A stretch of DNA of 64,000 bases, from positions 1 through 64,000 of IMG/VR virus record IMGVR_UViG_3300037589_000163; one strand, given 5' to 3'. This DNA is from a virus (Duplodnaviria > Caudoviricetes). The position numbers and the translations under genes are program-made. The notes under the pieces were generated by a model. That model saw nothing but the letters and a program-made list of their open reading frames with translations. It did not search any database and was not told the DNA's origin. This document shows, one piece after another, positions 13,314 to 49,243 of this stretch (position 1 is the stretch's first letter; every line of letters starts with the position of its first letter).

Positions 13314-13649
13314 TTAGGACTGTGTTTCGGCGAAGAGGGACTGGTAGTCAGTGACCAGTTCGTTGAACTTTGAAGCACGATCAGGCTGAGACTGGTATTC
13401 CCGACGGTATTCTTCGTGGATGCGCTCCTGATTGCGAGCTGCTTCCATGATGAGGTTGTCACGCCATGTGTGGTCTTCGACCTTGTGAGCGATGATCTGG
13501 TTGTTCTTGGCACGCTGTACGAAGCGGTCGAGCATGTCGACGGATGATGCTGCTGTGTCGATGATCTTGGCTGCTGATTCAGCTGTGGACTGGACAGTGC
13601 CGAGGAGTGCGACGATGGTGTTGGATGTGGTGGATGTGACGTTTGCCAT
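13314..13649 (-). CDS. N4 gp1-like first early protein
   Basis: 111 aa, Thr/Ala-rich N-terminus, first gene next to the end junction, strong RBS. Confidence 0.65.
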   Translation of the reverse strand: MANVTSTTSNTIVALLGTVQSTAESAAKIIDTAASSVDMLDRFVQRAKNNQIIAHKVEDHTWRDNLIMEAARNQERIHEEYRREYQSQPDRASKFNELVTDYQSLFAETQS

Positions 13650-13698
13650 TTTGGTTTTCTCCTGTTGAGAGGTGAGTGATGATCATGTGATCAGGCGA

Positions 13699-13719
13699 TC
13701 CAGAAAGGGCGTAAGCCCT
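13699..13719 (-). promoter_or_regulatory. vRNAP-type hairpin promoter variant (4-nt loop)
   Basis: TCC-AGAA-AGGGC-GTAA-GCCCT upstream of gp1. Confidence 0.6.
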
Positions 13720-14290
13720 GTGTGACTGGGACAACAGGAAGTGAGGCGAGTGCTGAGCTGTGAAGAGGTGGGGTAGGGTGTGAAAGAGATGTGAGAAGAC
13801 ACCGGGGGGGGGTATTTTCTTTTATCGAGATGCCCCGGTGTGAATAGTACCGAGCAGAACTATTATGAGATTACCCACACCCGAAAAAATCTGATAATAT
13901 TATCTCTATAATGTTCTCTTAAAAATATATAATAATTATATATATAATGATTATCAAAACATTGTGTATTATTATCTATAAATATTATCTTTAATAATGA
14001 GGTTTTGTCTCCCCCTTAATGGTATGGGAGTTTGCCCCTGTAAACGACAATATCTCCCCCGCTTCTCTTTCTCTAGTATTTGAGAGGAGAAGGGTAGGCC
14101 TGGGGGGCAAAACAGATAGGGATGGGGGGAAGCTACTCCACAGGGAGGGATCTTGTCTATCCCCGTCGGATCCTTTTGAAGGCCCGAAACTCTTGTCTAT
14201 CTCCAGCGAAGCCCAAAAGCCCAGGGAAAGCCTGGGTTGTTGGAGAGATAGGGGCCAGAAAAAAATATCAGGAATTGCTCAGGAAAAACT
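13720..14290. other. Probable virion genome-end/terminal-repeat junction
   Basis: Non-coding divergent region between gp1 and the terminase-side genes: G9 run (13804-13812), AT-rich core (13860-14000), short repeats (14114-14253). Confidence 0.55.
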
Positions 14291-14550
14291 CAGTGGAGGG
14301 TGGGTGAAACCATCTTGGGGAGCTCGATTGTGAAATATCCCTTCTCAGGGTTGCCACAGCAGACATAGGTAATCTCCTCTGTCTCGAGATCCTCGATCTC
14401 ATCTCCGAACCGGTCATAGGCCTCAATGATGGGAAGCATGGTGCCGTCGGTCATGACGACCTGCTCGGTGTTCAGATCGATGCCGAGGAATTCAAAAGGG
14501 AGGGGTTCGCTCTTGTCACCCGGGCCCCCGTTCATTCCTGGTTCCCCCAC
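14290..14550 (-). CDS. Hypothetical acidic protein
   Basis: 86 aa, GMNGGP motif near the N-terminus. Confidence 0.45.
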   Translation of the reverse strand: MGEPGMNGGPGDKSEPLPFEFLGIDLNTEQVVMTDGTMLPIIEAYDRFGDEIEDLETEEITYVCCGNPEKGYFTIELPKMVSPTLH

Positions 14551-14687
14551 AGGGAGAGCTCAACGGCACTTAGATAATGCTTGATAATGGTGCTTGAAAA
14601 TCTCACTTGATTATTCCTTCTAATGGTGATCTAAAACCTAAGTCCGATTTTTAGAAAATCGAAATCACATTAGCAAGGAAAATCATC

Positions 14688-14933
14688 ATGAATTTTGCAG
14701 ATGCAGTGAACAGCCTCCACGACGGGAAGACCGTCGCCAGGAAAGGCTGGAACGGGAAAGGCATGTGGCTGGTCAAGGCTGACCGTGGAACTTTCGAGAT
14801 TGACGGCAAGGTCGGCGGAAACCTGATCCCCTTCATCGTCATGAAGACCGCCGACAACAAGTTCGTTCCCTGGCTCGCTTCCCAGAGCGACGTCCTGTCG
14901 AATGACTGGGAAATCGTTGGGGAGGACTCCTGA
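14688..14933 (+). CDS. DUF2829 / Tad2-like protein (putative immune-signal sponge)
   Basis: MNFADAV...GKTVARKGWNGKGM...PWLASQSDVLSNDW matches the DUF2829 signature. Confidence 0.85.
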   Translation: MNFADAVNSLHDGKTVARKGWNGKGMWLVKADRGTFEIDGKVGGNLIPFIVMKTADNKFVPWLASQSDVLSNDWEIVGEDS

Positions 14934-15601
14934 TGGCCGTCCGCGTATTTGAAGAAGACCTGATCGCTCATGCGAAAGCCAGGAATGCCGTCCGAGTTAC
15001 CCTCCAGGATGTCGAGAACTCGATCGCCCACGAACGCTACTTCACCGCAGCCGAAGGTGCCTATGGCCGTGCAATCACGTCGAACGAATACCGTAAGCAG
15101 ATCCCGGCGGCCCTCAACTACCTGACCTTCTGTGTCCTGGTGATGAAGAACGGTTTCACGGTGACAGGTGAATCAGCCTGTGCCGATCCTCGCAGCTTCG
15201 ACCATAACATCGGCCAGGAGATTGCCCGCAAGAACGCGATCGGCAAGATCTGGATGCTGCTCGGTTTCCAGCTCCGCACCAAAATGTTCGATGAAGAGCA
15301 GCGTCTCGAGCAGATGGCCTTCCAGCCTTCCGGCGACATGGTCACCTATGTCGGCACGAAAGTCGTCAATGCGCGGCCGATGAATCGTCAGGCCTACAAT
15401 GACCTGCGTGGGTGGAAGCTTCCGGACGATGAAGACGGATCCGACGAGGGTTACCTGGTCGAATACACCGACCGCAAGGAAGTCCCTCCTCTTGTGCAGG
15501 GGTTCAAGGGATACATCTCCTGGTCTCCGAAAGAGGTCTTCGAGAACGCCTATGAACCGGTGGCCGGCGAGAGGAACGTTTATCAGGAGAGCCTCCTGTG
15601 A
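14933..15601 (+). CDS. Gp49 (Phage_gp49_66)-like domain fused to a GTK...GYLVEY...SWSPKEVFENAY domain
   Basis: LTFCVLVMKNGFTVTGESACADPRSFD...EIARKNA...IWMLLGFQL is Gp49-like; the second domain starts near MVTYVGTK. Confidence 0.75.
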   Translation: MAVRVFEEDLIAHAKARNAVRVTLQDVENSIAHERYFTAAEGAYGRAITSNEYRKQIPAALNYLTFCVLVMKNGFTVTGESACADPRSFDHNIGQEIARKNAIGKIWMLLGFQLRTKMFDEEQRLEQMAFQPSGDMVTYVGTKVVNARPMNRQAYNDLRGWKLPDDEDGSDEGYLVEYTDRKEVPPLVQGFKGYISWSPKEVFENAYEPVAGERNVYQESLL

Positions 15602-15924
15602 GCTTCCTCATTTTCCTCTTCGTGTTCGCCGTTCTGACCTTCTTCCAGAATGCAGTCTTCACCGCGGTATCCCGATCCAGGAACTCCGGCGATGTCTTCT
15701 ACCACTGGAAATGGTCGCTGCTGTCGAACAGCATCTGGTTCATCGCCCAGATCTTCATCATGAAAATGATCTGGGACGCGATCAATGACAGTTCCTACTG
15801 GAAGATCGCGGCCGCCGGCTGGGTGTACGTCATCACCACATCGAGCGGATCGGCGTGGATGATGTCCAGGATGCTGAAGAGCGAGCAGGGGAAGAGGCGG
15901 GTCGGGGCTGGTTTGCAGCCTTGA
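15598..15924 (+). CDS. Small multi-TM membrane protein
   Basis: 108 aa, GTG start overlapping the previous stop, about 3 hydrophobic segments. Confidence 0.6.
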   Translation: MSFLIFLFVFAVLTFFQNAVFTAVSRSRNSGDVFYHWKWSLLSNSIWFIAQIFIMKMIWDAINDSSYWKIAAAGWVYVITTSSGSAWMMSRMLKSEQGKRRVGAGLQP

Positions 15925-16105
15925 ATCACTCGGTACACCGGGCCGGGCAGCCCAGGAAGGAATAGGCGCCCGGCCCGTAGTCCCTCAGCGGTGGAAACCC
16001 ACAAAACACCGCGAGGAAAGATAATAGAAAATTGATTTTTACAAATCATCTCGTAATATTATGAGATAATGAATATCATAAAAATGATCTGAGGCAATAG
16101 AGAAT

Positions 16106-16930
16106 ATGAGTACTCCGTCCCTTTTTAATACCCCACCCCTTTTTAAGGATAATTCGGAGGTCTCCCAGGCGCCGGAGGCGCCACAGCATGTGGAGGAGCC
16201 GCAGGCGCCGGCTGTCGAGAAGAACCCGGCAATGACCCCCACGATCGGACTGATCACCGAGAATGATCTCAAGAGCGCTCTGCCAGCCACCCTGAGATCC
16301 TCCGTCAGCCAGTCCCTGGTCGACAAGGTCAACAGGATCTCAAGTGACCCGATCGCAGCGGAGAACATCCGCAATAATTTCGTCAGCTACACATCGGTGA
16401 TGAAGGAAGGCCGCTTCAAGATCGAGGATTACCTCAATGCGGTGGCTTACGTTTCCTACAAGCTGATGGGGTACAACAACGAGGAATCTTACGCGAAGAC
16501 CTTTCCGCAGCGTTACGCGGACCTGCTCGCGAAGAACACCTCCAAGAAGGACATCTCGGCCTATGTGTCGGCGTATCACCGCGGCAAGCTGGTGAACCTG
16601 ATCATGGAACAGTCCCTGGTTCCCTCCTGGGTCCTAAATCAGGATCTCTTTCAGAAAGCGCTCAACGTGCAGGCCGAACTGATGGCGACGGCCACCAGTG
16701 AGAAGGTGCGTACCGATGCCGCCAACTCGATCCTTACCCACCTCAAGAAGCCTGAAAAGGACTTCCAGCTGAACATCAACACGGAAGATTCCTCCGGCAT
16801 GCGGGAGATGCGGGACACTCTTTCCCAGCTGGCGGCCCAACAGAGGCAGATGATCGAACAGGGTCAGATGAAAACGATCGATGTCGCGGCAGCTCGTCTC
16901 GTCAACAAAAAGGAAGACGACGATGTCTGA
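16106..16930 (+). CDS. N4 gp69-like protein (putative small terminase)
   Basis: Directly upstream of TerL; YLNAVAYVSYKLMG and SEKVRTDAANSILTHLK motifs. Confidence 0.75.
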   Translation: MSTPSLFNTPPLFKDNSEVSQAPEAPQHVEEPQAPAVEKNPAMTPTIGLITENDLKSALPATLRSSVSQSLVDKVNRISSDPIAAENIRNNFVSYTSVMKEGRFKIEDYLNAVAYVSYKLMGYNNEESYAKTFPQRYADLLAKNTSKKDISAYVSAYHRGKLVNLIMEQSLVPSWVLNQDLFQKALNVQAELMATATSEKVRTDAANSILTHLKKPEKDFQLNINTEDSSGMREMRDTLSQLAAQQRQMIEQGQMKTIDVAAARLVNKKEDDDV

Positions 16931-18557
16931 GGCGCTCGAAACGATCCTGGCCAGCGGCCGCAACATCATCCGGAAAGAGCTGGATGAATGGCTCGACGAG
17001 GTTGATTACCAGACACTCAATGACAACAGCTACATCCCTTCGGAATTCTCCCTGGTCTTCATGAACTTCATCAAGCTGGTGAATGGAGAAGAAGGAGAAA
17101 GCCACAAGACACCGCCGGTCCACCTCAAGATGCTCGACAAGCTCTCGAGCTCGACTTCAGAGAATGTGGTCAATTTGTGTTTCCGTGGTGCAGCGAAGAC
17201 CACAATTTTCGCCGAGTACCTGTTCCTGTTCATTGCTCTCTACGGGTATCTCCCCAACTTCGGGAAGATTACCGGCGCCATCTACGTGTCCGACTCCATG
17301 GAGAACGGCGTGAAATCGATGCGGAAGAACATCGAATTCCGTTATGAAAACTCCGACTTCTTGAAAGAATGGATCCCTTACGCAAAGTTCACGGACAACT
17401 ATATCGAGTTCGTCAATCGTGACGGTCACCGGTTCGGTATCAAGATGTTCGGTGCTCAAACCGGTATCCGCGGTACCAAGATTTTTGGTAAGCGGCCGGT
17501 GCTCGCGGTACTCGATGACTTGCTCGACGATGATGACGCCAAGTCGCCGGCAGCCCTGAAGTCGATCAACGACACGATCTACAAGGGCATCAATCACGCC
17601 TTGGACCCAACAAGGCGAAAGATCATCTTCAATGGCACGCCCTTTTCAAAAGACGACCCAATGGTGGAAGCCGTTGAATCGGGAGCCTGGGACGTCAATG
17701 TGTGGCCGGTCTGTGAAAGATTCCCGTGCTCCAGGGAAGAGTTCTGCGGTGCCTGGGAGGATCGATTCAACTTCGATTACATCCTGAAGCAATACGAAGA
17801 CGCCGTGCTCAACGGGAAGGTCGAGGCCTTCATGCAGGAGTTGATGCTGCGGATCTCCTCCGAGGAAGAGCGTCTGGTCCAGGATGCGGAGATCAAGGAA
17901 TACTCCCGGGCCCAACTTCTCAACAATACAGGCTCGTTCAACTTCTACATCACAACGGACTTTGCCACCTCGGACAAACAGTCTGCCGACTATTCAGTCA
18001 TCTCGGTGTGGGCTTTGAACTCGAACGGGGATTGGTTCTGGGTCGATGGTGAATGCGAACGCATGACCATGGACAAGTCGATCAATCATCTCTTCCGTCT
18101 GGTTCAGAAATACCGGCCGCAATCCGTCGGCGTGGAAGTGTCGGCTCAGCAGAAGGCATTCATCAAGTGGCTTCAGGGAGAGATGATGCATCGGAACATC
18201 TGGTTCAATTTTGCATCGTCGGAGAAGTCGGGTGAGCCTGGTATTCGTCCAGTGGTCAACAAATTGACCCGCTTCAACCTGGTTGTGCCCCTGTTCAAGG
18301 CCGGCAAGATGTTTTTCCCCCAGGAAATGAAAGCCAGCAAGATCATGGGTCTGTTCTACGGCCAGCTGCGATTGGCAACCCGTAACGGCTTGAAAGGCAA
18401 AGACGACTGCATCGATACGATCTCGATGCTGATGTACCTCAATGCCTGGAGACCAAGCGAAAAAGCCCCAAAAATGATTGGACACAACGGCGGTCCGGAA
18501 TGGGATGAAGACGAAGAAGTCGAGCAGGTATCTGCTTTGTCCTCTTACATTGTTTGA
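16923..18557 (+). CDS. Terminase large subunit (N4 gp68-like)
   Basis: Walker A CFRGAAKTT, Walker B VLDDL, nuclease TTDFA and DDCID; start MSEALE. Confidence 0.93.
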   Translation: MSEALETILASGRNIIRKELDEWLDEVDYQTLNDNSYIPSEFSLVFMNFIKLVNGEEGESHKTPPVHLKMLDKLSSSTSENVVNLCFRGAAKTTIFAEYLFLFIALYGYLPNFGKITGAIYVSDSMENGVKSMRKNIEFRYENSDFLKEWIPYAKFTDNYIEFVNRDGHRFGIKMFGAQTGIRGTKIFGKRPVLAVLDDLLDDDDAKSPAALKSINDTIYKGINHALDPTRRKIIFNGTPFSKDDPMVEAVESGAWDVNVWPVCERFPCSREEFCGAWEDRFNFDYILKQYEDAVLNGKVEAFMQELMLRISSEEERLVQDAEIKEYSRAQLLNNTGSFNFYITTDFATSDKQSADYSVISVWALNSNGDWFWVDGECERMTMDKSINHLFRLVQKYRPQSVGVEVSAQQKAFIKWLQGEMMHRNIWFNFASSEKSGEPGIRPVVNKLTRFNLVVPLFKAGKMFFPQEMKASKIMGLFYGQLRLATRNGLKGKDDCIDTISMLMYLNAWRPSEKAPKMIGHNGGPEWDEDEEVEQVSALSSYIV

Positions 18558-38602: not shown

Positions 38603-41600
38603 ATGGTTGATAAAGTCAATCCGGCACTCTCGGCAAAAGGTCCTCGAGTGGCAAGCCAGCCGGAAACGGTTTCTGAAGCGCAAAAACTCCTTCAAGACAT
38701 CGCCCAGATCAACCAGGCCACATCTGACCCGAATGCCATGGCGGCAATGAATATCTCCCGTGAACGGGGGAACTCCCTGACAGGCGACAACGCCGTCATC
38801 CAGGATTATTCGACCCTGACACCCGTACAGTTTCAGAACCGCTACGGTATGGATGCCTATGACCAGATGGTGGCCGCCGGTATCGGAGCAGCTCATGCCA
38901 GAGACCTGGCCGGTAGCAGCCGTGATCTCGGACAGATTGCCAGAGATTCGGCGCTTGATGTCGCCAACGGTGCGTTGGGCGGTATCGGGGGTCTCAATGA
39001 CTTTCTGATCCGTGGTACGGTCGCTGGCCCGATCGGGGACAGGCTTCTCCAGAAAAACGCGGAAAACGTCCAGGGTGGTCGGGAATTCATCGACTCTTTC
39101 AAGACGACGCCGACGAAGCGGCTCGACTATGTCGACAGCATTCGGACCGAGTTGGATCGGATCGATAATGAAAAGCTGACCAAACAGGATGCCAGCGACG
39201 ACCAAGGCATTGTCGACTCTTTCCGCACATACGGGAAGTCCATCCTTCGGGATGCAGGGGCCGGCGTGGAAAGGTATGCTGAAGATCCTTCCCGTCTTGG
39301 TTCCGATGTCGGGGAAGGTGTTGGTTCGCTGCTTCTTGGTGGTGCCGCTTCCAAAGCTCTTTCGGTCGGTGCTTCTGGAGTGGTCAGAGCCACAGCTCCC
39401 ACCTCGGCAACTTCCAGGTTCGGCGCAGAGGCCGTTGATGCCGCAATTCAGCGTGCTGCTTTCCCGTTGTCGATTGGCGCCATGGAAGGCGGTGGAGCAT
39501 CGACCCAGGCAATTCTGGAAGTCATGGAAATGCCGGAAGAGGCTCTTCTCGAACAGCCGGCTTATCAGGAAATGCTCAGCGAAGGTTTGTCGCCGGCAGA
39601 TGCACGTAGCCGGCTGGCTGCTCGCTCCGGTGCCATTGCTGCATCGATCGCCGCACCAGTCGCAGCTGCAACTTCGAAGCTCGTCTCTCGCTTTGAGCAG
39701 GCACCTTTCTCGGGTGGTTCCGGAAGTGTGGTCGGCAACAGTGCAAGAGAGTTTGTCGAAGAAGGTATCCAGTCCGGTGCAGGAGAGCTCGCCGGGAACA
39801 TCGGTTTGAAGTTCTCAGGAGCTGACCAGGACGCAAGTCTCGTTGAGGGAGTTGGTTCCGCATCGGTGCAGGGTGCAATTGCAGGAGCAGGCACGGCCGG
39901 AGCAATTCAAGGCCCGAGCGCTGTTCTGCGGAATGCTGCAAAAGCAGCAGGATCCACTTTCAAATTTGCCGGCGACACTGTCAAGAAGCGTGGCGAAAAG
40001 ATCCTTGCCAACATTTCCAAGGAGTCGGCCGTCTCCGAAGAGAGCCTGGCTCCGGCACTGGAAGCAGCAACGACCCAGGCTACGTCCGTGGGAGAGGGTC
40101 TTCGCAAGCTGGCCACAGAGAACAGCACAAACGACGCCTCGGTCGAAGATTACATCTCCCGGGTGGAACGGGCCGTGCAGACAGACGAACAGGATCTGTA
40201 CCTCATTCCTGACAGCATGGGCCCTGTTCTGACGCAGATCCAGCAGGAAACTGGCCGAGTACCCAACCGCTTCGAAACGCTGACCGTGGCAGCAGCCACA
40301 GCCAACAACGAAGCTCTGAGCCAGGAAGAAAGGGTTGCCGCGGCAACTTTCCTTCTCAAGCACATCGAGAACAACAAAAAGCTGTTCACCGAGGATTTCC
40401 CCGAATTCCTGGACAATGTTCCCCATGATCGCCCGGAGTTCCAGGCATTCGAGGGATACGCCGGGATCCTTTCGACAATCGAACAGGTACCTGCAATTCA
40501 GCAGGCCATCGGTTGGGCTCGACAGGAAATGCAAGCGCCGGAAAGCGATGTCTCGAAAGTCGATCTGAATTCGGATGATGGACGGAAGATTGTTGAGAGA
40601 ACAGTCGAACTTGCGACAGTTGCTCCCCAGGCCATCAACCTGAAGGCAGCAGAAGACATTCTCTTCCAGGCCGACGAGGGCACGCTGAACCTTTCCCCGG
40701 AGCGTCGTCGCATTCTCCGTGGCGCCACGTCCTTGATCAACGCTGCTCGAGCTTACGCTGCACAGGTCAGGGTGATGGAACCAGGTGTTCTGGAAGAACA
40801 GTCGGAAGACCTCCAGCAAGAGCTTGATGAAACCCGTGATCGTGACGAGATGATGGAATTCATCGGCAGGCAGATCGAAAAGGACGGTGGTCCGAAGGCT
40901 CACCAGACTTCGCTGAGAGATCATGTTGCAGGCATCTCCCTTGCAGCGAGCCAGGGAGACATGAAGACCGCACGTCGCAAAGCGCAACGGCTCGTGATGT
41001 TCGCCATGTCGCATGCCAACAAGGTCAGCGCCTTGAGCCAGTCTATCCGAAACGGTGACGGCAAGAACGTGCCTTACAAAGCGTTGGCGGCTTCAGACGA
41101 ATTCTACACCAACAAGAAAGGTGTCGGTGTTCGCATCGGCAATCCTGGTTCCGAACGCTTTGCGCGCAAGGTTCAGGCAGAAGCAATGGCAATCGCTCAG
41201 TTGGCGAATGACATCAGCAACCAGTATCCCGAATTTGGTCTGCGCCAGGTCGAAGTTTCGGACCTTGGCTTGCAGAATGTTGAAGTCGGACAGAGGGAGC
41301 CCGCTCCCGCCGAACAGACAGAACTTCCCCAGGCTACCACAGCCGAGCAGGTTCAGGTTCGTCAGGAGGAGCTCCCTCTTCCGCGTTCTCAGCCTGCCCA
41401 GGAGCCTTCGCAAGCAACATCGGAGGAGACGTCCGTTGATGCGAGCTCGACCGTGGCGGCTGAGAAAGTGGTTTCGGAAACAGTGGATGAAGCCACCGCC
41501 GGCCCAGAAGATACAGGGAGCGGGCCGGCAGCGGCTTCGACCTCGACAGAATTGCAGGGGGGGTACTACCCTGCCGAGGTAACCGATCAGAGTTCTGACC

Positions 41601-44600
41601 GGGTTTCGGAATTGCTTGATGGTGTGTCTGAGGACGTTGATTACCGTCCTACGACTGCTGAGGAATATCCGGATCTCGTGGCACCGAATGGGAACAACTG
41701 GTTCCACAAGTCGTTCCGTAGCCCGGAAAACCTGAAGTCTCGTGTGGTCTGGTTGACCAACCCGATCAAGGATTTCAAGAGGATCCTGAGCAAGTCGAGT
41801 GAACTGGTTTCCTTCATGGGGAACCCGGATCTTCGGTATGATGTGAATGGTCAGGATGCTGCGGGTTTCCGCAAGCTCCTCTCCCTGGCCGATCCTGCGT
41901 TGGAAGCGATCGAGAATCGTTTGAAGGCCCGTCTCAAGAAGGACGGGCTTCTCGAAAAGATCGGCCAGGGGTTGGAAGTCAACCGGTTCCGGGATCTCCG
42001 TGTTCTGAACCTGATGCGCCAAGATGGCACGGGTTACAACACTCAGCTCGTGGAGACGGCAGTCATTGCTGGTCTCGACTGGGCTATCAACATGAGTTCC
42101 CGGGCTGCCCGGATGACTGTCAGTGAAGTTGCTTCCATCATGGGAGTCGATGAGGCTGATGCGGCTCCCTATGTGGAGGAGTTCAACCGCGGCATGTCGA
42201 TGGACATTGCCAAGCGTTCCCTGGCCGATCGAATCGTCCAGTTCTGGGGCGTTGAACCCGAAAAAAGTGCTCGTGATGGCCTGACCAAGGGGATTCCCGA
42301 GGCCATGGCTGCTGAAGTGCTGCATGGCCTGGAGGCTGCCGGCCTGCTTGAACTCGGTATTGAAAAGAAGGATGGCGAAGACAAGCGTCTCGCTTTCCCA
42401 CACCTGACCGAGAAGAAATTCAACCGCGTGCTGTTCGATACCCGGACGGAAGAAATGGAAGGATTGATCCGCAGCCTGGATGGCAAGCATGACTTGCTTG
42501 CCGACATGGTTCTGGTGAACCGTGAAGTTGAAGATTTCAGCATCGGTGAACCGGTGACAGACATCGATCAGCGTCAGCTTCGCAACCCGATGGTCGCTCT
42601 TTCCAACCAGCAGAAAAAGACCCTGGAGCACGTCCAGAGCACGCCGTATTTCCCGAACCAGGTTGTCTATGATTTCTATCAGACGCTTGGTGAAGAAGCC
42701 TATGTGACGATGATGAGTGGTCACCCCTACCAGAAGGGTGACCTGGAAAAGACCCACGTCGAAATGGGTTTGAACAGGATCCATTGGGAGTCCATCAAGG
42801 GACGTCAGCGTGGTTTGGTCAGTGATTTCCGTAATGTAACCAAGCAGATGACGGCTGTTCGTAGGAAGGGAGAAAACGTCCCGACCTACTACAAGCACCA
42901 CATCAACAAGCTTGGTCGTACCCAGATGGCTGGCCTCAGCAATCCGCAGACTTCGAAGCTCGCTCGTGAGATCTTTATGCCGACACGCTCGGAGCTGGAC
43001 TTGTCTGAGAATGCTCCGGATATGGACAAATTCCTGATGACCGTCGGTCAGGGCATAGGCCTGAAAACCGAAAAAGAAACTCGAGCCGACATCGTGATCA
43101 AGGTCATGGAAAAGACCATGACGGAAGGTGGAGAATTCTACCAGACAGTCCAGAACCTCAAGTCCTGGCTCCAGCAGCGTGAGAATGACCAGGGACAGGA
43201 TATTGACCTGGGAGTGTTCGAGGATCTCCGTTCGCACGGTCTTTCGGATCATGGCCTGCACTCGCTCATAGCGGTTGCCCGCTACGAGCTCGCCTCCGAA
43301 ACCGGGGGCGATCTGAGCAAGTTCGAGGTGTTCAACTATCTCGAGGCTGACGGCAAGACCAATGGTCCGATCAACGCCCTGATGACGCTGGCCGCCGGCA
43401 AGATCACTCCTGCCTGGCTCAACGCTGTAGGCAAGGGTGGTGCTTTCTTTGGTCGGTTGAACAAGACACTCAACAGCCACGAAGACAAGGTTGACCTCTA
43501 CGAAGAGAGCTCGACCGAAACCCAGGTTCAGATTGTGGAACTCAACGCAGCACTGGCTGAAAGTGACGAGAGTTCACATGAACTGTTTATTCGGTTCAAA
43601 AGGTTCCTATCGGCTCTGGAAGCCAATGTCGAAATCGACAGCAACGGTGAGATCACCATCAAGCGTGGTCTGACCAAGAACCCGTTGACCATCACCATTT
43701 ATGGATCAGGCGCCAAGGGTATCGCCGGCAAGGTCACAGACGAGATTGTGAATGCAATCTACGAGAACCTTTCCAAGTCGATCCAGGATGGAAAGCATGC
43801 TGGTGAGTTGATCTACGGTGACGGCAAGGGATCTGACTTCATGTCGGATCTGGTTGAGTTGACCTCGAAAGTCGTTCTTCGCAGCAAGGACAGCGAAGAA
43901 TATTTCGTCATGGGTGAGACCAAGGAAATTGGCGGTTCCAGCCAGAATTTCACGTTCAACAGGGAACAGTACAGCAACCTTCGTCAGAACGTTTTGACGT
44001 TCCTGGTCAATCCGATGCGGTTGGCGATCGATAAGAAAGTCACTGGTCATGTTGGCCGGACGACTTCGGCTGTCCAGCAGGCAACCCAGATCCAGTCGAT
44101 CTTCCTAAAGGGAATGACGATCGATAAGGTGACCCGTCGTCTTGCTGAAATGAAGAACGACCCGGACAAGTTCTCCTACCGGGAAGGTGAGTTCCTGAAC
44201 CGTAACGAGCAGCAGGATATTCAAGATAATCTCAAGCGATTTTCTCCAATAATCGACACCGGCACTCAGGCCTACATGATGTCGGGTGGAGAACGGAGTG
44301 ACCTGTTTGAGAAGACCGTCGTGGATATCGACGGCAAGCCGGTTGAAGTGACAATGCCGGAAACGTTCTCGAGGTCCTTGTCCGGTGATATGAAGACGCC
44401 AGCCTATTTCTATGGGCCCACGCTCGCTGGTGTTCGTGCCATTCCGACCCTGGTCGTTGGATCCGGTGATGGACAGATGATGCTCAACTTCCTCTCCGGA
44501 AACCCGGAAGCGGCTCGTCGTGTGCTGCATGTGTTCGATGGTCTGAACATGCCGGCTGATGCGATCGACGATTATTCGCGTCTCGTCAACCAGGCTGTTT

Positions 44601-47600
44601 TCCAGACCTGGACTTCAGACAAGAACCCGGTCCGGGCCGCCTATGAAAGTTTCAAGGCGTTCGTCGAAGCTTCCCCGATTGAAGAGCTTTTCCCTGGCGA
44701 TCAAATGAATGATCAGCAGAAGCAGGCTCTCCTGGAGTTGAGTCAGGTGGCCCTGGATCGCTTTGAAGTGGCTGAAGGCGATATCATCGACACCGAAACG
44801 GTCAGTCAGCTTCTGAACCTGACACTCGATAGGCTCGAGAGACTGGCCAACGAGACGGATGCACGTCGCCAGGTTTACGCTGAATTCGATTTGTCGGTCG
44901 ACCAGATGGCTTCGGGTGAAAGCCCGTTCGTGAATGAAGGTTCGATCAAGCTGGAAGAAAACACCAGCATCGAAGACATCGCCTATGAAATGCAGGCGCG
45001 TTACGAAGAGATCCTGACCAACCAGACGAAGCCAAAGACCGAGAAAACCAGTGTCTCCGGTGTGGAATCTCCCAACCAGAAACTGGAGGAGTTCATCCAG
45101 TCCGTGGCAAACACGAACGAGAACGGTGCTCTTGTCCTGGATCCGGATCAGTTGTCGGCAATGCCTGACAAGATCCTGAATTCCTCGCAGAAGCAGGTTT
45201 TGTCTGCCGCGGTGAAATCCCTGGCCGGCGCCGGTTATAGATTGGTCTTTGGAACACCAAGCGTGCTCGATGCCTGGGAACAGGCCAACAACGCTGACCG
45301 GTTCCTTCCTGGTTCCAACAATGGTTACGGCAAGATCGATCCGATTTCGAAGGTAGTCCTGGTCTCGAATACCTCGGGTGAGACCTTGGTTCACGAGCTC
45401 GTTCATGCCGCGACTTTCATGAAGGTCAAGGCAGCGTTCGAAGATCCCAAGGCAATCCCCAAGGAAGACCTGGAAGCTGTGGCCCGTATTGAAGGCCTCA
45501 TGGCCGAGTGGTTGGCCCAGGATTTCAGTGAATTTGACGAAGCAGCACAGGATGCCCGCCGGCAGGCTGTGGCGACAGTCGAAGGATACCATCGCCGCGG
45601 ACAGACTGCTCAGGCGGTCAATGAGTTCATGGCCTGGGTTTTGGGTAACCAGAACCTCAGCCGTGCTGCTCTCTTGACGAAGGTCAAGAACCCGCTTGCG
45701 AAGATCGCTCGTAATGCCCTGGCAGCCTTGAAAAAGCTGGTCTTCGGTACCGACAAAGTTGATCCGGTGCATGATGATCTGATGTCAAACTTGCGCTTCA
45801 ACACCCAAGTTCTCATGGCTACACCGACGCCGATCGAATTGCTGCGCCAGGATTACAACGACATGGCGCTCTACCAGTCGGCAACATTTGGCAACGACCA
45901 GCGGATTTCCGAACTGAGAGATCTGTTTGGTCGCAAGATCATTGCCTGGGTCAAGGGTAGCGGAACAGACGTCATCAACCGTTTGCAGAGCTCCGGCCGG
46001 GCAGTCGAAGCGCTGGATGCCTACAAGGCAGGCTTCAACACAGCCAGGGCTTTCGGATACCACTTTGACGGTCTCGGAAATATGCAGGCCAATTCGACCT
46101 TTGCTTCCATTCAGGCAGCGCTGATGACCGAAATGGATTTGAATTCCAATTCGCTGTCCAGGATTGAAGAGCTCTACAATCACGTCATGGGACAGTTGTC
46201 GCCGAGTTCCTTCCAGGAAAAGCCGGATCAGAACGACCCGAACGATCTTTACCAGGCCCAGGGAAAGTTCAACGTGTTGTCTGGTATCTACATCAATGAG
46301 ACCGACAAACTCGGCCGGTCTTCCCTGATGTCGTCTTTCCTGGCCCTCGCCATGGTCGATGACGGTTTCCGCAAGATCCTTGCTGGGATGAACAAGCCTG
46401 AAAACGAACAGAGCCAGGACCGCACTCTTGACGGTCTGCTCGAGAACGCAGCAAATGCTGGTCTCGATCGTCTGTCCCTGTATCTGGCAGGAGAGAAGAA
46501 GCAGGACAAGTCAGTGCAAGAAGCACTCGACAGCCTGACCATTGCGATGATCGAAAATGTCGGTGATCAGCGTGCATTCGTTGAACAGCAGACAGAGACT
46601 TTCTTCGAACAGGTCGAGGAAAAAGTCGCCAATTCGATCCAGGAGACCAGTGCCAGGGTTGCAGAGAAGTCGGCCGATGTTGCGAGGAACTCGAACAGCC
46701 GAACCGTCAAGGCCGGCGCCACGATCGTCAATGTCTTTTCGACGATGATCAATGAGCAGAAGTCGAGTGACGCAATGCTTGGTATGGTCAGCTGGCTCAA
46801 CCAGAAAGAAGGTATGGAACTGATCCGGGACACTGTCGGCAACTTCATTGGCCGAACCCGGGAGAATGCCGGCGTCTTCGATATGATCTCGAAGGTCCGG
46901 GCCCAGGTTCAGCAGGTTCGTCAGAACTTCCGTGAGGATCTTCCGGTCAAGCTTTCGAAGGAGTTCTCCAGGCCGCCGACTGCAAAGCAGTGGACTGCGA
47001 TGTATAACGCCCTCGGACGATCGGATATTGCTTCCCTGGTTCGTTCCTATGGTGTCGGTAAAACTGTCGATCTCGTTGCGGATACGTCAAAGATCGATGC
47101 TGAAGTGCAGAAGCTGGAGAGACAGATCCAAGCAGACAATGCCAGCCGCTTCCCGAAGATCAAAGAGAAGTCCTTGCAGCTTGCCAAGTTCATGATGACC
47201 GGCGAGCACGGTCCTCAGCTGCTTCGTAATGCCGAAGCAATCGCTCGTCTCCTGGGAGAGCGTGGCCTTGCCTTGCGTACCGCGCCTTCGCAAGAGCTCG
47301 TTGAATCGATCGACAAGCTGGTGACGCTGTATGCTCTCCAGGGGCTCGATGACAACAGTCGGGCAGACGTGACAACCTTGCTTGGAAACACGAAGGACAG
47401 GTCCGGAGTTGAGTTTGTCACCAGTTATCTGGTTGGTCAGCGCAATGATGAGCTGGCCAAGGTAGGAAGCAACAAGACTGCATCTTTTAACCACTACAAA
47501 GGACACATCCCATCGGAAGTCCAGCAGGGTGGTTCATTGAGGATTGCTTCCGAAACAAGCCACGCAGAAATGGTAAGCAGGGGATATACCCGTGTGGCAT

Positions 47601-49243
47601 CGTATGATGGATCTTCGGCCGATCGGACCCGCGGCAAACGAGCCTACTACTTTGCTCCGGTGTCGAGCCAGGCACCCTTCAGCCAGGGTGTCATGCAGAC
47701 CGTTCACCAAACGGTGTCCGGTATTGATCCGGAAACAGGTTTCACGATCGGAGAAGTGATGGGTGGTCGCATCGAGAATATCGATGTGGTGAAAATCATT
47801 GCTCGTCAGGTTGGAAACCAGAAGACAACCAACGAAAATCTTCTCCCTGTTTTTGGAGATAATGGGGAGATCGTGGCTTTCGAAAGGGGTGCTGATGTTT
47901 CGAAGCTCCAGGGGCTGAACCGCAGCACGGATCTGTCGCAGATGATTGGTGTTTGGCGTGGTCGTCAGGCGGAAGAGCTTCTTGCAACGGAAGTGAACAA
48001 GCAGCTCGTCGACGCCCTGAAAGACACCTGGGAAGAAGGCCGCAAGGCCGGTCGGAAAGATGAGTTCGTGAACATCGCTGCTCTTGGTTCAAAGAAGAGC
48101 GATGACCGCATCCTTTCGGAAGCAGCTCGTCTCATTCCGAACCAGACCAGGGATTACATCAAGGAAGTCTTCGGTGGCGATCAGTTCATGGTTCGCAGGG
48201 ACATGCTGCTTGACACATTCGGAGCCCGCCAGGCTTCGGTGGGTGATCTGTTTACCGGTAAGACCCGGTGGAACCAGAAGGTCGTCAATGAGTTCGAGAA
48301 GGTCGCTGTAGGCATTTTCGGAAAGCATGCCTATGTCGGAGCTGTCTCGGCCGAGAAGAACATCCAGGAGCTTGTCTCGAACGCCAAGACCATGATTGTG
48401 GTCAAGTCCGGTATCGTGCCGGCAGCGAACATGATCTCGAACCTGTTTCAGTTGCTCAACCGCGGTGTTCCGCTTCGCCATATCCTGGCCGGCGTTCCTG
48501 CAAAGACGGTGGAGATCAACTCCTATATCAAGAACAGGCACAGGGAGATCGGTATCGAAGCCGATCTACGTGCAGCAATGGGTCGTCGTGACCTGGTTCA
48601 GATAAGGCGCCTGGAGAACCAGTTGAAAGGAATCCAGGACGGTTATCGTCGGATGAGCATCTGGCCGTTGATTGAAGCGGGTGAGTTTTCCGCAATTTCA
48701 AATGGACAGGTGACTGCCGAAGATCTGGCCGTGGCCGATGGCAAGTGGACTGATTGGATCGAGAACAAGATCAACACACTGCCTGGCGGTTTCCGTACAG
48801 CTGCACGATATGGGTTAATCACCCGGGACACTGCCTTGTTCCAGGGTCTGGCCAAAGCGGTTCAGTACGGAGATTTCGTGGCAAAGGCAGTGCTCTACGA
48901 CGACATGACGCGCCGCAAAAAAGCCAAGAAAGAAGACGCTATCGCCACGGTGAACGAGGCTTTCGTCAACTACAACAAGTTGGCCGGCCGGGATCGTCAA
49001 TACCTGGAAAGCGTTGGGCTCCTGTGGTTCTGGAACTACAAGATCCGGATCATGAAGGAAGCAGTTCACATGCTCCGACACAATCCTCTGAGGTCCCTGT
49101 TGATGACAGGGGTACCGGTGGGAACTCCCGTAGGAGACAACATCGTCTCTGTCATCCTGGAAGATCGACTTGGATGGTCGATAGGACCTGGAATGGGGTG
49201 GAACAGTGTGAGCCTCAACCCCTGGATCAACCTTACACGTTGA
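38603..49243 (+). CDS. Virion-encapsidated RNA polymerase (N4 gp50-like vRNAP)
   Basis: 3546 aa, no Cys seen; motif A EADGKTNGP, motif B RGLTKNPLTITIYGSG, motif C VFDG. Confidence 0.96.
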   Translation: MVDKVNPALSAKGPRVASQPETVSEAQKLLQDIAQINQATSDPNAMAAMNISRERGNSLTGDNAVIQDYSTLTPVQFQNRYGMDAYDQMVAAGIGAAHARDLAGSSRDLGQIARDSALDVANGALGGIGGLNDFLIRGTVAGPIGDRLLQKNAENVQGGREFIDSFKTTPTKRLDYVDSIRTELDRIDNEKLTKQDASDDQGIVDSFRTYGKSILRDAGAGVERYAEDPSRLGSDVGEGVGSLLLGGAASKALSVGASGVVRATAPTSATSRFGAEAVDAAIQRAAFPLSIGAMEGGGASTQAILEVMEMPEEALLEQPAYQEMLSEGLSPADARSRLAARSGAIAASIAAPVAAATSKLVSRFEQAPFSGGSGSVVGNSAREFVEEGIQSGAGELAGNIGLKFSGADQDASLVEGVGSASVQGAIAGAGTAGAIQGPSAVLRNAAKAAGSTFKFAGDTVKKRGEKILANISKESAVSEESLAPALEAATTQATSVGEGLRKLATENSTNDASVEDYISRVERAVQTDEQDLYLIPDSMGPVLTQIQQETGRVPNRFETLTVAAATANNEALSQEERVAAATFLLKHIENNKKLFTEDFPEFLDNVPHDRPEFQAFEGYAGILSTIEQVPAIQQAIGWARQEMQAPESDVSKVDLNSDDGRKIVERTVELATVAPQAINLKAAEDILFQADEGTLNLSPERRRILRGATSLINAARAYAAQVRVMEPGVLEEQSEDLQQELDETRDRDEMMEFIGRQIEKDGGPKAHQTSLRDHVAGISLAASQGDMKTARRKAQRLVMFAMSHANKVSALSQSIRNGDGKNVPYKALAASDEFYTNKKGVGVRIGNPGSERFARKVQAEAMAIAQLANDISNQYPEFGLRQVEVSDLGLQNVEVGQREPAPAEQTELPQATTAEQVQVRQEELPLPRSQPAQEPSQATSEETSVDASSTVAAEKVVSETVDEATAGPEDTGSGPAAASTSTELQGGYYPAEVTDQSSDRVSELLDGVSEDVDYRPTTAEEYPDLVAPNGNNWFHKSFRSPENLKSRVVWLTNPIKDFKRILSKSSELVSFMGNPDLRYDVNGQDAAGFRKLLSLADPALEAIENRLKARLKKDGLLEKIGQGLEVNRFRDLRVLNLMRQDGTGYNTQLVETAVIAGLDWAINMSSRAARMTVSEVASIMGVDEADAAPYVEEFNRGMSMDIAKRSLADRIVQFWGVEPEKSARDGLTKGIPEAMAAEVLHGLEAAGLLELGIEKKDGEDKRLAFPHLTEKKFNRVLFDTRTEEMEGLIRSLDGKHDLLADMVLVNREVEDFSIGEPVTDIDQRQLRNPMVALSNQQKKTLEHVQSTPYFPNQVVYDFYQTLGEEAYVTMMSGHPYQKGDLEKTHVEMGLNRIHWESIKGRQRGLVSDFRNVTKQMTAVRRKGENVPTYYKHHINKLGRTQMAGLSNPQTSKLAREIFMPTRSELDLSENAPDMDKFLMTVGQGIGLKTEKETRADIVIKVMEKTMTEGGEFYQTVQNLKSWLQQRENDQGQDIDLGVFEDLRSHGLSDHGLHSLIAVARYELASETGGDLSKFEVFNYLEADGKTNGPINALMTLAAGKITPAWLNAVGKGGAFFGRLNKTLNSHEDKVDLYEESSTETQVQIVELNAALAESDESSHELFIRFKRFLSALEANVEIDSNGEITIKRGLTKNPLTITIYGSGAKGIAGKVTDEIVNAIYENLSKSIQDGKHAGELIYGDGKGSDFMSDLVELTSKVVLRSKDSEEYFVMGETKEIGGSSQNFTFNREQYSNLRQNVLTFLVNPMRLAIDKKVTGHVGRTTSAVQQATQIQSIFLKGMTIDKVTRRLAEMKNDPDKFSYREGEFLNRNEQQDIQDNLKRFSPIIDTGTQAYMMSGGERSDLFEKTVVDIDGKPVEVTMPETFSRSLSGDMKTPAYFYGPTLAGVRAIPTLVVGSGDGQMMLNFLSGNPEAARRVLHVFDGLNMPADAIDDYSRLVNQAVFQTWTSDKNPVRAAYESFKAFVEASPIEELFPGDQMNDQQKQALLELSQVALDRFEVAEGDIIDTETVSQLLNLTLDRLERLANETDARRQVYAEFDLSVDQMASGESPFVNEGSIKLEENTSIEDIAYEMQARYEEILTNQTKPKTEKTSVSGVESPNQKLEEFIQSVANTNENGALVLDPDQLSAMPDKILNSSQKQVLSAAVKSLAGAGYRLVFGTPSVLDAWEQANNADRFLPGSNNGYGKIDPISKVVLVSNTSGETLVHELVHAATFMKVKAAFEDPKAIPKEDLEAVARIEGLMAEWLAQDFSEFDEAAQDARRQAVATVEGYHRRGQTAQAVNEFMAWVLGNQNLSRAALLTKVKNPLAKIARNALAALKKLVFGTDKVDPVHDDLMSNLRFNTQVLMATPTPIELLRQDYNDMALYQSATFGNDQRISELRDLFGRKIIAWVKGSGTDVINRLQSSGRAVEALDAYKAGFNTARAFGYHFDGLGNMQANSTFASIQAALMTEMDLNSNSLSRIEELYNHVMGQLSPSSFQEKPDQNDPNDLYQAQGKFNVLSGIYINETDKLGRSSLMSSFLALAMVDDGFRKILAGMNKPENEQSQDRTLDGLLENAANAGLDRLSLYLAGEKKQDKSVQEALDSLTIAMIENVGDQRAFVEQQTETFFEQVEEKVANSIQETSARVAEKSADVARNSNSRTVKAGATIVNVFSTMINEQKSSDAMLGMVSWLNQKEGMELIRDTVGNFIGRTRENAGVFDMISKVRAQVQQVRQNFREDLPVKLSKEFSRPPTAKQWTAMYNALGRSDIASLVRSYGVGKTVDLVADTSKIDAEVQKLERQIQADNASRFPKIKEKSLQLAKFMMTGEHGPQLLRNAEAIARLLGERGLALRTAPSQELVESIDKLVTLYALQGLDDNSRADVTTLLGNTKDRSGVEFVTSYLVGQRNDELAKVGSNKTASFNHYKGHIPSEVQQGGSLRIASETSHAEMVSRGYTRVASYDGSSADRTRGKRAYYFAPVSSQAPFSQGVMQTVHQTVSGIDPETGFTIGEVMGGRIENIDVVKIIARQVGNQKTTNENLLPVFGDNGEIVAFERGADVSKLQGLNRSTDLSQMIGVWRGRQAEELLATEVNKQLVDALKDTWEEGRKAGRKDEFVNIAALGSKKSDDRILSEAARLIPNQTRDYIKEVFGGDQFMVRRDMLLDTFGARQASVGDLFTGKTRWNQKVVNEFEKVAVGIFGKHAYVGAVSAEKNIQELVSNAKTMIVVKSGIVPAANMISNLFQLLNRGVPLRHILAGVPAKTVEINSYIKNRHREIGIEADLRAAMGRRDLVQIRRLENQLKGIQDGYRRMSIWPLIEAGEFSAISNGQVTAEDLAVADGKWTDWIENKINTLPGGFRTAARYGLITRDTALFQGLAKAVQYGDFVAKAVLYDDMTRRKKAKKEDAIATVNEAFVNYNKLAGRDRQYLESVGLLWFWNYKIRIMKEAVHMLRHNPLRSLLMTGVPVGTPVGDNIVSVILEDRLGWSIGPGMGWNSVSLNPWINLTR

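Follow-up and report, generated by a model that had tools for sequence, protein, structure and literature searches.

A putative anti-signalling sponge operon beside the terminase of an N4-like phage and its widespread fusion domain

Introduction

Fusion of one anti-signalling sponge to another is an established strategy of phages, and it was by way of fusion to Tad2 or Acb4 that Sequestin was found, in a screen that queried Pfam for families fused to either of them. The Acb4–Sequestin fusion of an N4-like phage was demonstrated experimentally to be a dual sponge (10.64898/2026.06.04.730250), and a review of 2026 distinguishes seven sponge families. Here we describe an operon of three plus-strand genes (14688–15924) in the metagenomic virus genome IMGVR_UViG_3300037589_000163, a 74,015-bp record rated complete by CheckV, of which bases 1–64000 were analysed (hereafter the window). 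The operon encodes a Tad2-family protein, an Acb4-family domain fused to a domain that lacks a Pfam model and corresponds to none of the seven families (domain X), and a basic membrane protein. We propose that it is probably an anti-signalling sponge operon in which X serves as an autonomous, dimer-forming module.

Both recognisable sponge families of this operon have well-described members. In HgmTad2, glycocyclic ADP-ribose (gcADPR) is contacted by W21/N22/G23 and S90/T92/D93, and mutating these residues abolishes binding. Tad2 homologues as a family can also bind His-ADPR, N7-cADPR or cUMP/cCMP, and in Tad2 proteins with a long insertion the region between the conserved motifs makes a cyclic-dinucleotide site. 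Acb4 of phage SPO1 belongs to the Pfam family PF13876 and has 1,331 homologues, and all eight of those tested bind 3′3′-cyclic GMP-AMP (cGAMP) (Chang et al.). Acb4 homologues of Gram-negative phages bind cGAMP and cyclic di-AMP (c-di-AMP), and the N4 Acb4 binds c-di-AMP at 111 nM.

Results

Three overlapping genes encode a Tad2 protein, an Acb4 fusion and a membrane protein

The operon consists of the open reading frames (ORFs) ORF1 (14688–14933, 81 aa), ORF2 (14933–15601, 222 aa) and ORF3 (15598–15924, 108 aa), all on the plus strand. The TGA of ORF1 (14931–14933) overlaps the ATG of ORF2 (14933–14935) by 1 nt in the sequence TGATG, while the GTG start of ORF3 (15598–15600) and the TGA of ORF2 (15599–15601) share 4 nt in the sequence GTGA, so the coupling of all three genes by overlapping stop and start codons, noted in the initial annotation of this locus, can be read directly in the sequence. 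A Shine–Dalgarno-like purine run (AAGGAA, GGGAGGA and AGGAG, respectively) precedes each start. Since all three products have many homologues, each matched with strong E-values, these genes are not chance ORFs.

ORF1 is a minimal Tad2-family protein. It matched the Tad2-like profile PF11195 of Pfam over positions 1–73 of 73 (88.6 bits vs a cut-off of 25, E 4e-25) and aligned with the solved Tad2 structures 8v3e, 9eib and 8sme at E 9e-14 to 2e-12, in agreement with the earlier statement that DUF2829 is the family of Tad2. In the structure alignment ORF1 keeps the motifs GWNGKGM and S-x-S-D-x-L-x-x-DW (S-Q-S-D-V-L-S-N-D-W in its own sequence), which are equivalent to the residues W21/N22/G23 and S90/T92/D93 that contact gcADPR in HgmTad2. 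The region between the two motifs is even shorter than that of SPO1 Tad2. This short insertion suggests that the extra cyclic-dinucleotide site of HgmTad2 is missing from ORF1, which is therefore expected to take ligands of the ADP-ribose (ADPR) type only. DUF2829 also takes in AcrIIA7, an anti-CRISPR that hijacks the trans-activating CRISPR RNA (tracrRNA) according to a paper of 2026, and the PDB entries 8kbi and 9kzr matched ORF1 at E 1e-12 to 1e-11. That ORF1 is an AcrIIA7-like protein acting on tracrRNA and not a Thoeris sponge is nevertheless very improbable, as its gcADPR-contact motifs are intact, it is the minimal 81-aa form, and its alignments to 8kbi and 9kzr fall into two pieces, in contrast to its unbroken full-length alignments to Tad2 and ModTad2.

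Residues 1–126 of ORF2 (14933..15310, plus strand) form an Acb4-family domain that closes with a long helix (residues 91–126). The Pfam match to PF13876 covers residues 22–117 (105.2 bits vs a cut-off of 27, E 2.6e-30), and with PF11195 in ORF1 and PF13876 in ORF2 both matched above the gathering score, the proposed check against Tad2 and Acb4 hidden Markov models supported both assignments. An alignment-based AlphaFold2 model of ORF2 (pLDDT, the predicted score of the local distance difference test, 93.6; predicted template modelling score, pTM, 0.78) was compared with the PDB by Foldseek, and the top fold matches were chains of 9e4w, the SPO1 Acb4 with cGAMP (probability 1.0, target-normalised TM 0.65–0.75, E 5e-3 for the two-domain query). 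A profile of 54 Acb4–X proteins also matched 9e4w (E 2.1e-7). The N-terminal half of ORF2 has the Acb4 fold, in which a beta1–beta3 core is flanked by helices. The association of the Gp49-like domain with Acb4, which the initial annotation had put forward subject to confirmation by hidden Markov models, proved to be correct, as PF13876 is the Acb4 family of Chang et al. and the best fold match is SPO1 Acb4 itself. The Acb4–X architecture is common, as at least 85% of ORF2 is covered by each of more than 100 proteins.

Taken by homology, the Tad2 protein and the Acb4 half of ORF2 very probably act as sponges.

Domain X is fused to most sponge families

Domain X spans about 80 residues of ORF2 (~134–212; 15332..15568, plus strand). 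It had no match in Pfam or NCBIfam and no name in ESM Atlas. Two candidate identities were rejected. X is not part of PF13876, which covers residues 22–117 of ORF2 only, and it is not Sequestin, the helical PF21825, which relatives carry after X in addition; ORF2 had no PF21825 match at E ≤ 0.1, and X is beta-rich.

An exhaustive HMMER search with residues 130–222 of ORF2 as a query detected X at E ≤ 1e-3 in 1,494 clusters, made at the 50% identity level, and at E ≤ 1e-10 in 699, and tblastn located the domain in the genomes of 126 isolate phages, among them N4 and phages that infect Vibrio, Klebsiella, Pseudomonas, Clostridium and Parabacteroides. In 141 representative clusters (E ≤ 1e-3) the Pfam partners of X were Tad2 (42), Sequestin PF21825 (41), Acb4 (31), the Acb2/Tad1 hairpin (2) and YceI (1), with no others; RyR-domain fusions of X also exist. 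The domain order was then recorded for the 150 best representatives with the Tad2, Acb4 and Sequestin profiles. X–Tad2 was the most frequent form (41), followed by Acb4–X–Sequestin (23), X–Sequestin (21), Acb4–X (11) and X–Acb4 (8), while Sequestin–X and triple forms with both Sequestin and Tad2 were represented by two proteins each, and X stood alone in 13. The stand-alone genes encode 78–93 aa. Lockin and TadIV-1 are thus practically the only sponge families with no fusion to X, which may take any position in the order of domains and also occurs by itself. The fused domain had been described initially as uncharacterised and as a companion of DUF2829 proteins, and both points hold, with no Pfam model for X and with Tad2 as its commonest Pfam partner (42 of 141). 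The same association is seen in phrog_872, which matches X over profile positions 12–85 and Tad2 over 89–171, and in N4-type phages, where the gene after the PF13876 gene encodes X plus Tad2. Having no Pfam model, X was missed by fusion screens based on Pfam.

The remaining 29 of the 150 best representatives (e.g., P0153, P0203, P0222, P0226, P0232 and P0254) carry X together with at least 50 aa of unassigned sequence, and these unassigned regions are mostly singletons. Some of these partner regions resemble divergent Tad2, and others could be new anti-defence modules. In another locus (L014, 2501–2991), a stand-alone X gene (80 aa) is followed 12–62 nt later by a stand-alone Tad2 gene (61–78 aa); this pair, a split form of the N4-type X–Tad2, lies between genes of a PD-(D/E)XK nuclease and a single-stranded DNA-binding protein. 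The nomenclature of these proteins can mislead. The N4 protein labelled gp49 (YP_950527) is X plus Tad2, while the PF13876 domain ('N4 Gp49/Sf6 gene 66') belongs to the preceding 123-aa gene (Escherichia phage AL25, L002, 1995–2851; N4 NC_008720.1, 34021–34236).

Fold, conservation and a crystallised relative of X

The model of X alone (pLDDT 87.9) is a small alpha/beta domain. Foldseek searches of the PDB with this model gave a best E of 1.3, and the wide VIA-align comparison gave a best Z of 3.2 (DUF1653, 3be3), followed by chromo-, Tudor- and CarD-like small barrels at Z 2.3–3.1, none of which stood out. In BFVD only other X-containing viral proteins were matched. These weak matches do not show that the fold is new. 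Sequence searches of the PDB with ORF2 and with the X profile found no match for X, and the full RyR Tad was not in the PDB copy searched, in which only its RyR part matches other entries.

By sequence and profile comparison, the N-terminal domain of gp68 from Pectobacterium phage CB1, known as RyR Tad, is a homologue of X (33% identity at E 4e-5 by BLASTP; E 2.9e-8 at 95% probability by hhalign), and the data on this domain are the only experimental information on the X family found in the literature. About 25 positions of X are at least 90% identical in every class of protein, whether X stands alone or is joined to Tad2, Sequestin, Acb4 or an unassigned region; the near-invariant ones include K143, R152, Y155, R159, W161, Y178, Y194, W197, F203 and Y207. 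Across phages of Proteobacteria, Clostridium and Parabacteroides X is 40–65% identical. As X is conserved regardless of its partner, is conserved across phyla and has stand-alone genes, it would have an autonomous function on an invariant target, and with 40–65% identity across distant phyla an invariant small molecule fits better as such a target than a fast-evolving host protein. On these grounds we tentatively suggest that X is itself a ligand-binding sponge. Canonical X, defined by its R152-Y155-N156-R159-G160-W161 helix motif, may represent a new autonomous family of immune-signal sponges, or another small-molecule-binding anti-defence module, with a ligand not covered by Tad2 or Acb4; this we hold to be possible, somewhat short of an even chance.

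Several findings weigh against a signal-binding X and against the operon as it is read here. Fedorova et al. (10.64898/2026.06.04.730250) observed no anti-Thoeris-I activity for residues 1–86 of CB1 gp68, found the RyR part alone to be sufficient, and saw the N-terminal domain in the crystal as a domain-swapped dimer, which exchanges the beta1 strand and serves dimerisation. X is acidic overall (pI 4.5), and sponge pockets have been described as positively charged. One stand-alone X gene lies directly 5′ of a stand-alone Tad2 gene, an arrangement compatible with an accessory as much as with an autonomous role. In the Acb4 half, the ligand contacts of SPO1 Acb4 (K36, F48, E49, V56, Y57, F62, N63, I66, T70 and K81) were mapped through the profile–9e4w alignment, and only three of the ten, the stacking or hydrophobic F48, F62 and I66, are identical in ORF2 (F75, F89 and I93), while K36, E49, V56, Y57, N63, T70 and K81 become Y63, T76, C83, A84, D90, I97 and M108, respectively. 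Since most base- and phosphate-specific contacts are replaced, the ligand specificity of this domain cannot be read from the sequence; Acb4 homologues with other contact residues still bind cGAMP or cAA. The surroundings of several ORF3 homologues, given below, belong to the same side of the balance.

The initial proposal of the fused domain as a candidate new counter-defence factor stands with a caveat. The domain is indeed uncharacterised, but a divergent relative, the RyR Tad N-terminal domain, has been crystallised and is inactive against type I Thoeris. This negative result is not cleanly transferable to canonical X, because the gp68 domain diverges at conserved residues: its positions 152, 155, 156, 159, 160 and 161 are L, F, K, A, N and K.

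The crystal structure also underlies the explanation that X is purely structural, a domain-swapped module that dimerises or cross-links and so raises the valency or stability of the fused sponge, with no ligand of its own. In RyR Tad the homologous domain swaps its beta1 strand and adds to the dimer, yet gcADPR is sequestered without it and it has no activity by itself; X is often internal and connector-like, as in the Acb4–X–Sequestin proteins (23 of 150), and a stand-alone X gene can adjoin a stand-alone Tad2 gene. A scaffold would not account equally well for stand-alone X genes that have no recognisable sponge neighbour and form sizeable clusters, nor for near-invariant R, Y, N and W residues that are independent of the partner and yet missing in the inactive gp68 domain. 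Moreover, Tad2 and Acb4 are already tetramers unaided. We consider a scaffold-only X somewhat less likely than a ligand-binding one.

X could also be a protein-binding inhibitor of a host defence sensor or effector, like Tad3–Tad8, delivered together with the sponges, as Thoeris inhibitors other than sponges are known to bind ThsB or ThsA and X co-occurs with anti-signalling domains. Its very high conservation across phages of distant phyla would be unusual for a binder of rapidly evolving host proteins, and no host partner was suggested by any result, which makes this explanation improbable.

The membrane protein ORF3

ORF3 is a small basic protein (pI 10.2) with a K/R-rich C-terminal tail and strong hydrophobic segments at residues 1–26 and 40–63; a third segment (~67–90) was below the hydropathy threshold used. 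It matched phrog_33664 (E 4.7e-20), and only 22 homologues were found; ESM Atlas gave it no name. One of them lies directly after Acb4–X in the 77-kb N4-like contig L012 (59% identity), where the order Tad2, Acb4–X and membrane protein is the same as in the window, and another directly after Acb4–X–Sequestin in the Mesorhizobium record L006 (63% identity). Overlapping or abutting codons precede the membrane-protein gene both in the window and in L006. Other homologues are not next to sponges and occur among nucleotide-metabolism genes (L005), after RecA (L007) and among the structural genes of Cellulophaga phage phi18:3. The candidacy of the membrane protein as a new counter-defence factor, put forward in the initial annotation, is thus backed by coupling and by synteny in two close relatives, and opposed by homologues that lie elsewhere, among replication, nucleotide-metabolism or structural genes. 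The link of ORF3 to anti-defence is confined to local synteny, because its distant homologues sit among unrelated genes, and its participation in counter-defence appears unlikely; a role in lysis, exclusion or some other membrane function is at least as likely.

In particular, ORF3 may well be unrelated to counter-defence, as a membrane protein of holin-like, lysis-timing or superinfection-exclusion type whose only tie to the sponges is a common transcript, and we lean slightly towards this explanation. Its small size, basic character, two to three transmembrane helices and charged C-terminal tail are consistent with such a role, as are the few homologues and their scattered surroundings. On the other side, searches of Pfam, PHROG and NCBIfam gave no holin family match; the gene is flanked by Acb4–X and by a gp69-like gene or terminase, with no endolysin adjacent, and it is found directly downstream of Acb4–X in the window, L012 and L006.

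The operon occupies a variable slot beside the terminase of N4-like phages

The window derives from an N4-like phage (Schitoviridae) of ~74 kb. It encodes a virion RNA polymerase (vRNAP) ORF of 3,546 aa (38603–49243) and a large terminase (16881–18557; phrog_38, E 4e-92). Among isolates, N4-like phages of Rhizobium/Sinorhizobium, Achromobacter and Pseudomonas come nearest, with ~70% DNA identity across the terminase. Mesorhizobium records and metagenomic contigs of ~75 kb supply the closest relatives of the locus at the protein level, which points to a member of the Rhizobiales as the probable host.

In the relatives, the slot of the operon lies between N4 gp1/gp2-like early genes on one side and a gp69-like gene with the terminase on the other, and its content is variable. 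It holds Acb4–X followed by Tad2 in L009, Acb4–X alone in L010, an Acb2/Tad1-hairpin gene followed by Acb4–X in L011, Tad2, Acb4–X and the membrane protein in L012 and the window, an unassigned 96-aa gene followed by Acb4–X–Sequestin and the membrane protein in L006, and Acb4–X–Sequestin alone in Rhizobium phage RHph_X3_15. This terminase-side slot is a second anti-signalling island of N4-like phages and is not the hotspot between primase and vRNAP that Fedorova et al. described. The latter region of this genome (49268–54700, minus strand) contained no Pfam-recognisable sponge; the Pfam matches were to dUTPase, YfbR-like and AAA proteins only, and six further ORFs had none. These six could be Bes1/Bes2-type or new inhibitors.

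The L006 locus belongs to a Mesorhizobium sp. chromosome (CP034450.1, 1898617–1910934) and lies inside a 6.46-Mb bacterial chromosome record. It includes Phage_N4_Gp1, Phage_N4_Gp2, the gp69-like gene, the large terminase and the operon of Acb4–X–Sequestin and the membrane protein; other Mesorhizobium 'Gp49 family' proteins are on contigs of 108–164 kb. N4-like phages are regarded as strictly lytic, so L006 may represent an N4-like element that is integrated or carried, or else a product of faulty assembly. A conserved 75–81-aa protein with two CxxC pairs (zinc-ribbon-like) follows the membrane-protein gene in L012 (3721–3966) and L006 (6401–6628), and is absent from the window.

Elements flanking the operon

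The region 5′ of ORF1 is a divergent, AT-rich intergenic region. It contains a conserved element, TTGATT-N17-TCTAAA, with the core CTAATGGTGRTCTAAAACC (14606..14639, plus strand). In an alignment of the upstream regions of four related N4-like genomes (the window, L012, L006 and L009), this block, preceded by CTTG and located ~50 nt 5′ of the first gene of the island, was invariant. A sigma-70 scan called no promoter directly 5′ of ORF1, the block included. The block is probably the promoter of the operon, a candidate to which no polymerase specificity is assigned. A hairpin nearby, CGATTTT-TAG-AAAATCG (14645–14661), was considered as an N4-type vRNAP promoter and dropped, as it is not conserved in the relatives; it occurs once in the window, and the chance expectation was 32 of 100 shuffles. 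Farther upstream, between the early-gene block and the sponge operon, the very AT-rich segment 13890–14010 of this divergent region holds five of the six sigma-70-like sites found in the scan of 13600–16200, on both strands, against 1.8 expected. The physical genome ends of N4-like genomes would fall at about the same position of the window.

Downstream of the operon, positions 15925–16105 are non-coding and include a GC-rich inverted repeat (15940..15976, plus strand; fold energy −33.9 kcal/mol, z −2.08). It is not followed by a T-run and was not called by the terminator scan, and it is a weak candidate for a terminator or an RNA-end structure.

Discussion

The Tad2 and Acb4 proteins of this phage are ordinary members of known sponge families, and it is their architecture and position that are new. 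Also new are the kinship of X with the RyR Tad N-terminal domain, the divergent motif by which the published negative result is narrowed in scope, the fusion census and the terminase-side island. The analysis establishes the gene structure, the family assignments, the fold, the fusion counts and the synteny; for the working of the operon we infer ligand binding, oligomeric states and expression timing, as well as any function of X or ORF3. By homology, ORF1 would form a tetramer that sequesters ADPR-derived Thoeris signals of the gcADPR type, and cyclic dinucleotides of the CBASS type would be sequestered by a second tetramer, that of the N-terminal half of ORF2. The long helix would join this half to X, which would be an autonomous module of ~80 aa and, by homology to the crystallised RyR Tad domain, pair into a domain-swapped dimer. 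Translational coupling would supply the two sponge proteins in fixed proportion, with ORF3 co-expressed downstream of them. X might be more than a connector and bind a further conserved small molecule, as a third sponge specificity, while cross-linking the assembly.

What makes X of interest is its distribution: ~1,500 clusters and five or six otherwise unrelated sponge families share a domain that is conserved across phyla but lacks a Pfam model, and reasoning from fusions in this way is how Sequestin came to light. A signal-binding X would be one more family of sponges and perhaps reveal one more signal, whereas an X that only dimerises would be a module of general use in assembling sponges of several specificities, of value for explaining how these work and for engineering them. 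Should the sponge reading of X be true, the X proteins with unassigned partners (29 of the 150 best) would be a source of further anti-defence domains, with X as bait. From this locus it is also apparent that, in N4-like phages, a second variable island of anti-signalling genes lies beside the terminase.

Compared with known systems, ORF1 is closest to SPO1 Tad2 and ModTad2 (8sme, 8v3e and 9eib), with which it aligns over its full length (E ~1e-13) and shares GWNGKG and S-x-S-D, while it is shorter (81 aa) and 7 residues are deleted from its insertion region. Acb4 of SPO1 (9e4w) has its Pfam family and fold in common with the N-terminal half of ORF2; the two differ in that identity is ~18%, seven of the ten ligand contacts are replaced, and ORF2 adds an N-terminal extension of ~20 residues, the long C-terminal helix and domain X. 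In RyR Tad, the N-terminal domain has the motifs K-x3-A-x-PM, EGYLV-Y and SWSP-x2-VF in common with X and is likewise fused to a sponge domain, whereas its partner is the RyR domain and not Acb4, and it departs from canonical X at R152, Y155, N156, R159, G160, W161, P164, E177, D180, G193 and Y207. In the N4 pair (N4, H88; Enquatrovirus AL25, L002), Acb4, X and Tad2 are likewise encoded by two adjacent overlapping genes, but the domains are distributed as Acb4 and X–Tad2 there and as Tad2 and Acb4–X here, and the N4 site lies before the vRNAP, in the published hotspot, whereas the site in the window lies before the terminase. The Acb4–Sequestin protein gp59 of the Pseudomonas N4-like phage Ab09 (10.64898/2026.06.04.730250) similarly combines an N-terminal Acb4 with a second small oligomerising domain in an anti-signalling island; its second domain, however, is the helical PF21825 Sequestin, while that of ORF2 is the beta-rich X with no Pfam model, and its island is located between the primase and the vRNAP, that of the window beside the terminase.

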